Assembly: GCA_963693105.1 (NCBI GenBank)
Contig: OY843752.1
Coordinates: 776,646-840,645 of the forward strand
Direction: 5' to 3'
DNA: 64,000 nt
From: an uncultured candidatus Porisulfidus sp.
Lineage (GTDB): Bacteria > Pseudomonadota > Gammaproteobacteria > Poriferisulfidales > Oxydemutatoraceae
The notes below the pieces were generated by a model. The model saw only the letters and a list, made by a program, of their open reading frames with translations. It was not told where the DNA came from and made no database searches. A program made the position numbers and the translations under genes. Shown here piece by piece: positions 10,260 to 23,738 of the stretch (position 1 is its first letter; every line of letters starts with the position of its first letter).

Positions 10260-11816
10260 ATGCCGAATCTTAATCTTCGCTCGCCGATTCCAATGTGGTG
10301 CATTGGTTGGGTCTTGCTGCTGTTGGGCGCGGCGACTTCAGTCCGCGCGGCGGAATCCCTGATGGCGGTGCTGGAACATGTCCACCAGAACCATCCGCGC
10401 CTGCAGGCTTCAAGAAACAATCTGCTGGCCGTGCATGAACAGGTGCCGTCGGCGCTGGCGGCTTTTCTGCCGAGGGTTTCTTTTTCGGCGGAGCTGGGGC
10501 GGACCAGCTACGAGCGAGAGTATTTTTCGGATGTTAGTCTCTGTCGCAATATTGGCACCAACCAGATTTTTAATCTGGGCACGTCAGTATCAGATGATGA
10601 GAGGGCGGCTTGTCTAACGAGTAACGGAACAGTCGAGGAGGTCGGAGATAGCAAGATTGAGACCTTCTATGGAGAGAATGCCAAAACCAACCCGTCCTAT
10701 ATCAGAAGATCCGCAACCGGCAGGTTGAATTTGTTCCGGTCGGGCGCCGACCTCGCGCAATACCGCGGCGCCCATCATCTGGTGGACCGCCAGGAGGCGC
10801 TCTACCGCAATGTCGAGCAGGAAATCCTGTTGCAGGGAATCCAGGCCTATCTGCAAGTGCACCTTGCGCGCCGCACCATCGGCTACCGCGAGAGCAATCT
10901 GGAGGCGTTGCGCGAGCGCGCGCGCGTGACCCGGAATCAGTTCGAAATTCAGGACAAGACGCTGGCCGATTTGGAGCAGGTCAGGGCGCGCGTCGCCGTG
11001 GCGCTTGCCGATCTGGCTCTGGCGAAGGCGTCGGCGGCGCAGGCCGAGGCGACTTTCCTGCGCGTGGTCGGGCGCATGCCGAGCGAGACGTTGGCGGAGG
11101 TGGAGTCCGCCCCCGATATTCCGCCGAGCCTGGAGCAGGCTGTCGGCGCCGCACAAACGGCCAACCCGCGCGTACGTACTGCCCGTGCCGCGTGGATGTC
11201 GGCCAACGCGCAGGCGCGGCGCACGCTGGCGGCGAATGGGGGGCCGAGCGTTGATTTTGTGAGCCAGATTAGCGAGAACCACAGCCGCGAGAAATTGGTG
11301 GGTGACACCACGCAATGGAGCATGGCCTTTCAACTGAACGTACCGATTTATCAGGGCGGTGCGGTTGGTTCGGCGGTGCGCCAGGCGCGGCACTCGGCGG
11401 AGCAGAGCCGCAGTGAATATCTGGACGAGGTTCGCGCCACGCGCGAGTCGGTGACGCGCGCCTGGGAGGATTATCTGGCGTCAAAGGCGCGCAGGGATGC
11501 GCTCGAAGAAGCGGCGCGGGCCGCGCAAGTCGCGCTGGCGACAGTGCGTCTTGAGGTCGAGGTCGGTCAGCGTCTGGTCGTGGACGAACTGGATGCGGCG
11601 AGGGATCTGGTCAACAACCAGGTGACGCTGGAACAGGCGTCGCGGGACTGGCTGCTGGCCGGTTACCAGTTGCGCCGCCATACCGGCGCCTTGACGGCGT
11701 CGTCGCTGGGGCTGGCCGACCACATGCCGCAGCGCAAGGGTTTTACAGCCGAGATGCTGGCGCCGACCCCGTATCAATTGTGGCGGCATCGAGGCGTTTA
11801 TCGGGAGGCAGAATAA
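10260..11816 (+). CDS. TolC-family outer-membrane efflux/type I secretion channel (start uncertain)
   Basis: Signal peptide, NHPRLQA, AFLPRVS, NVPIYQGG, VGQRLVVDELDA; first gene of the exporter operon. Confidence 0.88.
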   Translation: MPNLNLRSPIPMWCIGWVLLLLGAATSVRAAESLMAVLEHVHQNHPRLQASRNNLLAVHEQVPSALAAFLPRVSFSAELGRTSYEREYFSDVSLCRNIGTNQIFNLGTSVSDDERAACLTSNGTVEEVGDSKIETFYGENAKTNPSYIRRSATGRLNLFRSGADLAQYRGAHHLVDRQEALYRNVEQEILLQGIQAYLQVHLARRTIGYRESNLEALRERARVTRNQFEIQDKTLADLEQVRARVAVALADLALAKASAAQAEATFLRVVGRMPSETLAEVESAPDIPPSLEQAVGAAQTANPRVRTARAAWMSANAQARRTLAANGGPSVDFVSQISENHSREKLVGDTTQWSMAFQLNVPIYQGGAVGSAVRQARHSAEQSRSEYLDEVRATRESVTRAWEDYLASKARRDALEEAARAAQVALATVRLEVEVGQRLVVDELDAARDLVNNQVTLEQASRDWLLAGYQLRRHTGALTASSLGLADHMPQRKGFTAEMLAPTPYQLWRHRGVYREAE

Positions 11817-13078
11817 TGGCTGGAATTTCTTTTAGAAAAGAGGCACTGGATCATCTTACATCGCCGGAGCAGCTGGACCGTACGGTGCCTATCCTGCGGC
11901 CGCTGGACTGGTTGATTGGCGTCGCCTTTCTGGTCATGTTCTCGGCGCTCGGCGTGTGGAGCGTGGTCGGTGAACTGACCAAACGTGTGCCTGCGACGGG
12001 CTTGCTGATTAACAGCGAAGGCAGAATCTTCGACGCGATGGCGGTCAGCGGCGGTGTTCTCGGGGACATCAAGATTGGAATCGGCGATGTCGTTGAGAAG
12101 GGGCAGATCATCGGCGATATCCTGCAAAGCGAGGTGCAGCAGCAATTCAATATTGCCGAAGAGGCATTGCAGCGGCGCCGCGCCGAATTTGGCGAAGTCG
12201 AGGAGCAACTGCTGACCGAGGATGAGATCAGCAAGGATTTCTACGACAAGCAGGCGAAGCGGTTGCGGGAGCAGGTCAGCCTGGCGCAGAAAGTGGTCTC
12301 GACTGCGCGCAAGCAACTCGAGGATTACCGCACACTGCTCGAAAGCCAGTCGGGAACGCGCGCCGGATTGCGCGCCCAGCAGCAGGGTTATGACCAGGCG
12401 GTGGCGAATCTTTCGCGTCTCAACGACCAGTTGGAGCAACGCGAAAAGCAGGAACTGGACCGCCAGCATAACGCCAGAACGCGGATGACGAGGGCCAAGG
12501 AGGCCGTCATCGCGGCGGAAGACCGCATTGCTGAATTGGAAGTGCGTCTGTCGGATTCCACCGCCGTGAAGTCGCCGGTCAGGGGGCGCATCATTGAACT
12601 CAAGGCCAATCCGGGGTCGTCATTGCGCCCGGGCTTGTCGGTGGCAAGCATCGAAACCCTGGGCGAAACGCTTGAGATGATCGGCTACGTTCCGCCGCAG
12701 CACAGCGGCAAGGTGAAGGTCGGCCAGGAGGTGCTCGTTGGTGTTGGCACCGGCGATGACGCATCGGGCAGCCGCATGATCGGTAAAGTACGCCATGTCT
12801 CGGAGTTTCCGGTGAGCGAACAGGGAATTATGGTGCAACTGCAAAATGCCGCTCTGGCGAGGACCTTGATTCAGGCCGGCGCACCTTACGAGGTTCGTAT
12901 TTCCCTGGATCGGGACGAGAGAAGCGCCAACGGTTACGCGTGGACTTCCAAAAAAGGCCGCCAGAAGGAAAAAATAGCCAGCGGCATTTTTTGCAATGCA
13001 AAAATTGTGCACGATAAAGTCAAGCCGATTTCGATGGTGGTGCCGTTGACGAAAGAATTCTTCGGGATTGAAAGTTAA
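11816..13078 (+). CDS. NHLP bacteriocin system secretion (HlyD-like adaptor) protein
   Basis: FRKEALDHLTSPEQLD N-terminus and SANGYAWTS C-terminal motif typical of the NHLP-system membrane fusion proteins; coiled-coil middle; ATG overlaps the tolC TAA. Confidence 0.9.
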   Translation: MAGISFRKEALDHLTSPEQLDRTVPILRPLDWLIGVAFLVMFSALGVWSVVGELTKRVPATGLLINSEGRIFDAMAVSGGVLGDIKIGIGDVVEKGQIIGDILQSEVQQQFNIAEEALQRRRAEFGEVEEQLLTEDEISKDFYDKQAKRLREQVSLAQKVVSTARKQLEDYRTLLESQSGTRAGLRAQQQGYDQAVANLSRLNDQLEQREKQELDRQHNARTRMTRAKEAVIAAEDRIAELEVRLSDSTAVKSPVRGRIIELKANPGSSLRPGLSVASIETLGETLEMIGYVPPQHSGKVKVGQEVLVGVGTGDDASGSRMIGKVRHVSEFPVSEQGIMVQLQNAALARTLIQAGAPYEVRISLDRDERSANGYAWTSKKGRQKEKIASGIFCNAKIVHDKVKPISMVVPLTKEFFGIES

Positions 13079-22515: not shown

Positions 22516-23738
22516 TGGGCGAAGCGGTTGCCGGGCGGCAGGCTTTCTCCATCGGCCGGCTGTTCTGGTTTTTTCTGAGAATCGGTTGCACCGCCTTCGG
22601 CGGTTTTATGAGCCTGATCTCGATCATCCAGATCGAGTTGACCGAGAAGCGTCGCGCGATGGAGCAAAAGGACATGCTCAACGGCATCGCCCTGGCTTCG
22701 ATTCTGCCGGGCCCAATCGCGGTCAACGTCACCGCGTACGCCGGATTCCGCCTCTACGGAGTGGCCGGCGCCGCCACCAGTATGCTGGCGGTGATTCTGC
22801 CTTCGTTCGTATTGATGATTGTGGCGGCCGAGATTTACCTGCGATGGGGGGAGCTTCCGGCGATTCGGGCCGTGTTCAACGGTATCATCCCCGCGATTGT
22901 CGCGGTCATTCTGCAGGCGGGATGGAACATCGGCCGCAAAACCGTGACCGGCGTCAAGCCGTTTGTATTGGCGGTGCTGGCGGCGCTGGCGATTGTTCTG
23001 GTCAAGGGCTTTTACGTGACGCTCGCGGTGATTTTTGTCGCCGGCGCGCTGGGACCGCTGCTGTTTCGCGGTAACGCCGCCACCGCGGTCGCCGATGAGA
23101 GCGCTTCCGCGGCGCCGGTTGTGTCATCCGCACTGCAATGGCTGTTCGCTTTTCTGCTGGCGGTGGTGCTTTTGCTTTTTCTTCTGCCGACGCCCGATTG
23201 GATTCGCTCTGTTCCCGTCGCGCATCTGTTCACGACTTTCTCCGGCATGAGCTTGACGCTGTTCGGGGGCGGCTATGTTTTCATCCCGATGATTCAGAAG
23301 ATCGTGGTCGAAGGCTATCACTGGATTACCGCGGAGCAGTTCAACGCCGCGATTGCACTGGGTCAGATTACGCCGGGCCCGATTCTGATCAGCGCCACTT
23401 TTATCGGCTACAAGGTGGCTGGCATCGGCGGCGCGGTCATTGCAACCGCCGGAATTTTCCTGCCACCGGCAATGCTCATGGTGCTCGCCGCCCACTGGCT
23501 CGGCCACCTGCAGAAATCCGCTTTGCTTCAGCGCGTGCTGCACGGCATACGCATCGCTGTTTGCGGCATGATTTTCGCCGCCGCCGTTCTGATTGCAGGA
23601 ACCGCGAGCAGGGAGTGGGGTGTGCTCGCAATTTTTGTGCTGGCACTGGCGGCGCTCCTGTATTACAGGATTACACCGGTGCTGGTGATTCCGGTGGCCG
23701 GCGTGCTGGGTTTGTCGCTGTACGCGGCAGGAATGTAG
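22515..23738 (+). CDS. chrA: Long-chain chromate ion transporter (CHR) family protein
   Basis: Two homologous halves: FLRIGCTAFGG...ILPGP and LFGGGYV...GQITPGP; ATG overlaps the sulfotransferase TGA. Confidence 0.88.
   Translation: MGEAVAGRQAFSIGRLFWFFLRIGCTAFGGFMSLISIIQIELTEKRRAMEQKDMLNGIALASILPGPIAVNVTAYAGFRLYGVAGAATSMLAVILPSFVLMIVAAEIYLRWGELPAIRAVFNGIIPAIVAVILQAGWNIGRKTVTGVKPFVLAVLAALAIVLVKGFYVTLAVIFVAGALGPLLFRGNAATAVADESASAAPVVSSALQWLFAFLLAVVLLLFLLPTPDWIRSVPVAHLFTTFSGMSLTLFGGGYVFIPMIQKIVVEGYHWITAEQFNAAIALGQITPGPILISATFIGYKVAGIGGAVIATAGIFLPPAMLMVLAAHWLGHLQKSALLQRVLHGIRIAVCGMIFAAAVLIAGTASREWGVLAIFVLALAALLYYRITPVLVIPVAGVLGLSLYAAGM

Follow-up and report, generated by a model that had tools for sequence, protein, structure and literature searches.

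The DNA considered here is a window of 64,000 bases (genome positions 776646-840645) from an uncultured candidatus Porisulfidus sp., whose genome (G000) is a single contig of 1,833,960 bases with an estimated completeness of 98.8%. The list of open reading frames (ORFs) places eight consecutive, tightly packed + strand genes at 10233-23738 of the window. A first-pass annotation, made from the letters alone, had described them as an export and tailoring operon for NHLP/proteusin-type peptides made by the ribosome and modified after translation (RiPPs), with neither a precursor nor a cyclodehydratase. The ORF list and the Pfam and NCBIfam scores bear out this gene set. The eight genes are listed below with their scores in bits, followed where available by the curated cut-off:

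10233..11816, + strand, gene 1: TolC-family outer-membrane channel (PF02321, 146; TIGR01844, 224.2, just below the cut-off of 225.15).
11780..13078, + strand: HlyD-type periplasmic adaptor of the NHLP system (TIGR03794, 220.1 against 156.2).
13108..15393, + strand: C39 peptidase/permease/ATPase exporter of 761 amino acids (ABC1), with predicted Gly-Gly leader cleavage (TIGR03796, 956.9 against 853.3; PF03412, 129, residues 41-168).
15390..18344, + strand: second ABC permease/ATPase (ABC2; TIGR03797, 752.5 against 709.4, residues 293-983).
18408..19943, + strand: predicted ThcOx-like azoline oxidase SagB1, dependent on flavin mononucleotide (FMN) (TIGR03605, 153.0 against 78.4; PF22767, 39.8 against 27.7).
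19954..21480, + strand: predicted ThcOx-like FMN azoline oxidase SagB2 (TIGR03605, 157.5 against 78.4; PF22767, 50.9 against 27.7).
21514..22515, + strand: sulfotransferase of the type using 3'-phosphoadenosine 5'-phosphosulfate (PF13469, 98.4).
22515..23738, + strand: CHR-family transporter, overlapping the sulfotransferase stop by 1 base (TIGR00937, 242.3 against 171.7; PF02417 twice, 273).

The junctions between successive genes measure -37, +29, -4, +63, +10, +33 and -1 bases, so no precursor gene could fit inside the operon, and a consensus scan detected no terminator-like site on the + strand in its intergenic gaps. The three genes of the NHLP export cassette (TIGR03794, TIGR03796 and TIGR03797) are adjacent at 11780-18344 and all exceed their curated equivalog cut-offs. 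The TolC gene has an ortholog, 72% identical, at the equivalent position in the congener G002. Residues 1-297 of ABC2 (about 290 amino acids, window 15390-16280) gave no Pfam match even when the threshold was relaxed to E ≤ 1. This N-terminal region is conserved, as the ortholog in G022, a genome from another family of the same order, aligns across the whole 984 amino acids. SagB1 and SagB2 are 64% identical, and each combines, in ~510 amino acids, a ThcOx-type N-terminal domain with a SagB-type FMN domain.

A YcaO gene in the same gene cluster, the usual setting of SagB/McbC/ThcOx oxidases, is not found here. There are no YcaO, radical-SAM or LanC genes within the window, and family searches of the genome placed every match outside these 64 kb or below cut-off, as the first-pass annotation had stated for YcaO, LanM and radical-SAM genes. 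Exactly one YcaO match exists in the whole genome, at 452021-453037, ~335 kb from the operon, and the 10 radical-SAM matches all lie outside the window. The single LanC-like match, at 1439357, scored 15.7 bits, below cut-off, and a hidden route of the LanM type was rejected on this ground. Both SagB matches of the genome, and its one C39 match, lie in the operon; by tblastn the NHLP-type HlyD and ABC1 are likewise present in one copy each.

The YcaO match forms part of a compact locus (genome 449435-454321, from the precursors to the cyclodehydratase) whose ORFs, in a region of high G+C, were picked by codon-usage score:

Genome 451907-454321, - strand: fused E1-like/YcaO cyclodehydratase of the thiazole/oxazole-modified microcin (TOMM) type, 804 amino acids (TIGR03604, 260.5 against 219.25; TIGR03882, 93 against 36.9).
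Downstream of the YcaO gene: candidate PoyD-like radical-SAM epimerase, 496 amino acids (TIGR04517, 319.6 against 325, full length over residues 10-484).

Beyond the epimerase gene lie two precursor genes, encoding NHLP-like leaders that end in Gly-Gly and cores in which Cys, Ser, Thr, Gly and Ala abound. The leader-core junctions, marked here by a slash, read ..VVGG/SHCAGTATT.. and ..ISGG/SGCASTIGTTTT... Precursor A occupies genome 449846-450307 and precursor B 449435-449824. No oxidase or exporter genes were found at this locus. Its flanks are housekeeping genes, with ribonucleotide reductase genes beside the precursors and, on the other side, tsaD as the nearest annotated gene, ~2 kb off beyond two short unannotated ORFs.

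From gene families, copy numbers, synteny and co-occurrence, we consider it likely that the six genes tolC-hlyD-abc1-abc2-sagB1-sagB2 make up one half, for finishing and export, of a split azole-containing proteusin (NHLP/TOMM) pathway whose first half lies ~335 kb away; the enzyme activities, the action in trans and the co-transcription within this scheme are predictions from those observations. The fused cyclodehydratase would turn Cys, Ser and Thr residues of the two NHLP-leader precursors into azolines, and residues would then be epimerised, probably by the PoyD-like radical-SAM enzyme. The azolines would next be oxidised to azoles by the two ThcOx-like FMN oxidases, acting as free-standing enzymes by means of their own N-terminal leader-binding domains. 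Finally, the C39-ABC/ABC2/HlyD/TolC machine would remove the leader after Gly-Gly and export the peptide. The first-pass annotation had proposed a RiPP pathway scattered over the genome around a common hub for export and oxidation, and the distribution of the only YcaO, the epimerase and the two precursors on one side and of the only C39 exporter and both SagB genes on the other agrees with it. Its further suggestion of an undescribed system is not supported, as a precursor and a YcaO occur together elsewhere in the genome, the very finding that the annotation had named as refuting it. The pathway is of a known kind and differs in its organisation: there are two oxidase genes, and they lie in the export operon, away from the cyclodehydratase gene.

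Four lines of comparison (homologous loci, a contiguous version of the pathway, relatives and catalytic residues) indicate that the oxidases do belong with a YcaO. We retrieved 80 loci carrying an oxidase homologue and used the 48 with full 10 kb flanks, scoring them by tblastn with the proteins of this genome (E ≤ 1e-8; YcaO alignments ≥ 200 amino acids). Within 10 kb of the oxidase homologue a YcaO was present at 47/48 loci, a C39-ABC gene at 11/48 and a PoyD-like gene at 7/48. In G022 the whole pathway is contiguous and on one strand, in the order two precursors, YcaO, SagB, YcaO, tolC, hlyD, abc1, abc2. (An ORF of 837 amino acids lies upstream of these precursors, at 17169-19682 on the - strand of locus L029, and looks LanM-like by eye only.) Among 40 relatives surveyed, SagB was found in 3, YcaO in 11 and C39 in 10. 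All 3 SagB-positive relatives carry both YcaO and C39, all 10 C39-positive relatives are YcaO-positive, and SagB occurs in none of the 29 that are YcaO-negative. The residues K433 and Y434 are invariant in 7/7 sequences of the oxidase alignment (A1), as is the W-K-Y motif that contains them, and this motif aligned when the oxidases were compared with ThcOx/CyaGox (PDB 5lq4 and 8pz5; E 3e-57). K433-Y434 is residue-aligned to ThcOx and likened by motif to the catalytic pair of McbC, Lys201-Tyr202 (PMC6395948). ThcOx carries two N-terminal peptide-clamp domains (PMC5108345), and since the oxidases studied here have their own N-terminal domains of this leader-binding kind, they could work apart from the cyclodehydratase.

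The separation of the two halves is shared by congeners. In G002 the eight-gene order is unchanged and the orthologs are 72-89% identical; in G001 abc2-sagB-sagB-sulfotransferase-CHR can be followed up to the contig end, with orthologs 73-94% identical. In both genomes YcaO and the epimerase are on contigs separate from the operon, and the flanking genes of both loci match those in G000. The two precursors of the YcaO locus are also present in G001, while in G002 the contig breaks off inside the epimerase gene. That the split is stable across three species argues for oxidases and exporter working in trans. Both oxidase paralogs are retained in G001 and G002, and, because the paralogs are 62-64% identical and the orthologs 73-78%, the duplication predates these species. 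Linkage is the rule and the distance of 335 kb seen here the exception, since in genus g7 a C39 gene lies within 10 kb of YcaO in 7/9 YcaO-positive genomes.

A fourth member of the genus has lost the system. The complete, 2.4 Mb genome G003 has no SagB, YcaO or NHLP-type ABC1 above cut-off, and its syntenic region (L129, 14909-16465) shows a deletion running from the C-terminus of a response regulator encoded upstream of the operon to residue 58 of the sulfotransferase, whose first 57 codons are lost. The deletion took the histidine kinase gene, most of the response regulator and the whole export/oxidase block. The CHR gene of G003 is truncated and frameshifted, and its phosphatidylserine decarboxylase aligns in two pieces. 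NHLP precursor matches number 6 in G003, against 25 in G002 and 28 in G000.

Several observations weigh against a split azole-proteusin pathway. The PoyD-like protein falls just under its cut-off, and its Pfam Radical_SAM score is only 24.4 bits. Precursor A of the YcaO locus matches TIGR03793 over positions 7-77 of 77 with 24 bits (E 2.5e-5), against a cut-off of 50.9. The gene order is unlike that of G022, with SagB after abc2 here and before tolC there, and so the split did not arise by simple breakage of the G022 layout. The relatives surveyed are kin, which means that the co-occurrence counts are not independent events. Within genus g7, YcaO is present in 9/11 genomes and SagB in only 1/11, implying that azoline products without oxidation are common among relatives and that oxidation is optional.

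The first-pass annotation had also entertained oxidases that perform YcaO-independent chemistry. Here the two SagB-like flavoproteins would, for example, dehydrogenate other exported peptides such as a Gly/Ala/Val-rich family, and would be encoded near the exporter as they serve many precursors. The window without a YcaO, the lack of a Cys/Ser/Thr-rich precursor beside the operon, and the one fully flanked homologous locus (L084) that also lacks a YcaO within 10 kb are all in keeping with this idea. It is nonetheless very unlikely given the YcaO at the other 47 of those 48 loci, the restriction of SagB to YcaO-positive relatives, the intact Lys-Tyr pair and ThcOx-type architecture, and the existence in this genome of a YcaO with suitable substrates. 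The operon might instead be a decaying remnant of a once contiguous cluster, its oxidases left without a working pathway. The cluster is indeed split, and the congener G003 has lost everything. An ORF with a fatty-acid desaturase domain and an ISL3-type transposase domain (PF01610; genome 440653-441867, - strand) lies ~8 kb away from the YcaO locus, perhaps as a trace of the rearrangement. We regard decay as highly improbable, because in G000 the ORFs of both loci are intact throughout, the catalytic residues are invariant, and the congeners G001 and G002 keep orthologs at the identities given above together with both oxidase paralogs.

The role of the last two genes has to be weighed separately. 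RaxST O-sulfates RaxX in Xanthomonas, and the sulfotransferase could similarly be a true tailoring enzyme, as the first-pass annotation had it, O-sulfating peptides before export while the CHR protein supplied sulfate. Its gene follows sagB2 on the same strand at a distance of 33 bases, and no terminator-like site intervenes; the pair may be co-transcribed with the export/oxidase genes; the order sagB2-sulfotransferase-CHR is kept in G001 and G002; an adenosine 5'-phosphosulfate (APS) kinase is encoded in the genome; and several Nif11 precursor cores carry D-Y motifs. The damage to both genes in G003 alongside the loss of the operon points the same way, but a single deletion taking away the 5' end of the sulfotransferase gene accounts for it too. 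Elsewhere the pair keeps other company. A sulfotransferase homologue was found in 9/399 other Gammaproteobacteria scored, and in 7/7 families examined (G205, G362, G152, G147, G320, G313 and G290) a CHR gene is its immediate neighbour on that strand, with both gene orders occurring. SagB was above cut-off in 0/7 of these genomes and a C39 gene was near the pair in 0/7, with 3/7 lacking any C39. Among the 48 fully flanked SagB loci, none had a sulfotransferase or CHR homologue. Of 3783 sulfotransferase homologues (E ≤ 1e-3), a few are fused to an APS kinase domain. Many from cyanobacteria are ~50% identical, which hints that the substrate is conserved. The closest solved relative is the CurM sulfotransferase (4e-11). 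Chains of tyrosylprotein sulfotransferases (TPST) matched only marginally (E 1.3e-3 to 8e-3, ~21 bits) in a comparison that left RaxST out. Recurring in 7/7 families without adjacent RiPP genes, the two genes look like an autonomous module that adjoins RiPP genes only in this genus. The sulfotransferase is thus probably not a RiPP tailoring gene, and a tailoring role is unlikely. A bolder scheme, which we hold to be a little less likely still, would have the pair captured in this genus into the export/oxidase operon and sulfating exported Gly-Gly-leader peptides, with the Tyr/Trp-rich Nif11 family and its (V/F)DY(S/T)xDP..YWGTP cores as one candidate, to give a RaxX-like sulfated secreted peptide. 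In it many of the 49 dispersed precursors would be handled in trans by one YcaO together with one epimerase, two oxidases and one exporter, and a 1.8 Mb genome would yield a combinatorial peptide library. A limited literature search found no described sulfotransferase-CHR pairing, a weak basis for calling it unpublished.

In addition to the two precursors of the YcaO locus, the genome encodes many leader peptides that fit the exporter. TIGR03793 (NHLP) has 28 matches, 2 of them above cut-off, and TIGR03798 (Nif11) has 10, of which 4 are above. Combining these with the paralogs of an ORF at window position 30388 and with the second ORF of the YcaO locus gave 52 precursor-like ORFs, 49 of which carry x-G-G at the leader-core junction as read by eye. 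The ORF in question lies within the window:

30388..30945, + strand: precursor gene (hhalign, paralogs); leader NHLP-like but divergent, with a Gly-Gly site; core of ~95 amino acids, rich in Gly, Ala and Val.

In hhalign the match between its leader and canonical NHLP leaders (95.4% probability, E 1.7e-8) extends as far as the Gly-Gly. The first-pass annotation was right to call it a precursor, and it belongs to a 15-member family (alignment A3) with paralogs at genome 308-476 kb and 721 kb. Few residues of its core could be heterocyclised, and its product is for this reason a likely export substrate and not an obvious azole substrate. The single exporter appears to be the only available route for this and the other precursors with Gly-Gly leaders, ~47 besides the two of the YcaO locus. 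The cores of the 15-member family comprise 90-110 amino acids of Gly, Ala, Val and Ile and end in (G)P-V-N-V-G-L-(A/V/P)-(S/G/E); precursor A at the YcaO locus has a similar C-terminal tag, NVGLPD. Eight Nif11-leader precursors form a tandem array at genome 701566-704951, and a ninth lies at 842633-843028, just past the end of the window. Their cores are rich in Tyr and Trp and share the pattern ..DPM(R/A)YWGTPxW..YW... Local maturases for the array were considered and rejected, since the genes on either side of it are for a porin and an outer-membrane beta-barrel protein, with no maturase among them. A two-gene precursor cassette is duplicated in tandem at genome 95647-96640 and 97453-98416, the first gene of each copy encoding an identical peptide.

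The organisation resembles that of several described systems. Haft, Basu & Mitchell (2010, PMC2887384) reported that NHLP and Nif11 precursors scattered in a genome have an exporter in common, and that export and tailoring genes mix and match. The three-gene cassette, the Gly-Gly leaders, the large paralogous precursor families and the distance of precursors from maturases all resemble the NHLP/Nif11 TOMM clusters treated in that work. In contrast to those clusters, it is here not only precursors but also the oxidase that lies ~335 kb from the cyclodehydratase, inside the export operon. The closest characterised pathway is that of nostatin A, whose cluster encodes an NHLP precursor, a cyclodehydratase, an azoline oxidase and a PoyD-like epimerase (PMC11583998). 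Both have cores rich in Ser, Thr, Cys and Ala, with PSCLSSASTASS in nostatin and PSCMSTAGSASTAGSASS here. The nostatin genes, as described there, form one contiguous cluster, with a LanM-like dehydratase and a B12 radical-SAM methyltransferase among their products, whereas the present genome has no LanC above cut-off, two oxidases to one cyclodehydratase and a split cluster.

For the oxidases, the best solved relative is ThcOx/CyaGox (PDB 5lq4, PMC5108345), which aligns over residues 216-496 at the E value given above and shares PF22767. Identity is ~35-40%, over the catalytic half only, and the substrates here would carry NHLP instead of cyanobactin leaders. Release would also differ, with a C39 exporter predicted here and the PatA/PatG proteases acting in the cyanobactin system (Cox et al. 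2015, PMC4603692). The same account groups NHLP/Nif11 cyclodehydratases with those of cyanobactins and their dehydrogenases with the PatG-oxidase group, and the ThcOx-like assignments made here fit this grouping. Dozens of dispersed Gly-Gly-leader precursors served by one exporter in a small genome also recall prochlorosin-type systems, in which many scattered precursors share few enzymes; PMC2887384 mentions such systems. Unlike these, the present genome has no LanM, and its known set of maturases consists of a single YcaO, a single PoyD-like epimerase and two oxidases. The srp proteusins of sponge microbiomes (bioRxiv 10.1101/2023.06.09.544420) resemble it in their NHLP precursors, YcaO-made azol(in)es and origin in uncultured marine symbionts, but the LCCCW core of that preprint is not visible in the precursors examined here.

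These results illustrate how cluster-based genome mining can misread a pathway. The operon alone suggests oxidases that lack a cyclodehydratase, and from the YcaO locus alone one would expect azolines only, with no export; both loci together give an ordinary azole-proteusin pathway. Some 50 precursor genes, apparently served by one exporter, take up a large share of the coding capacity of a 1.83 Mb genome in an uncultured organism of the symbiont type. The C39 domain of the exporter would be a handy tool for releasing all these peptides in vitro, and the conserved sulfotransferase-CHR pair forms a small module of its own.

The G+C content is 0.57-0.61 over the operon and its neighbours (window 6001-26000), compared with 0.64-0.65 on either side, and no SagB, YcaO or C39 was found in 15 genomes searched from other genera of the same family. 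Both observations would fit horizontal acquisition. For the ORFs at 27664-29322 and 5130-6425, relaxing the Pfam threshold to E ≤ 1 returned nothing usable. Two genes identified by Pfam are divergent from the operon and may regulate it:

8134-10227, - strand: histidine kinase.
6940-8118, - strand: response regulator-PP2C phosphatase.

Both are kept upstream of the operon in G002, and they are the genes deleted along with it in G003. The periplasmic domain of the kinase is of the phosphonate-binding type, and the response regulator is fused to a SpoIIE/PP2C phosphatase. A STAS-domain protein is encoded just downstream of the operon (23745-24158, - strand), and the kinase, the response regulator-phosphatase and the STAS protein are together components of a partner-switching circuit.

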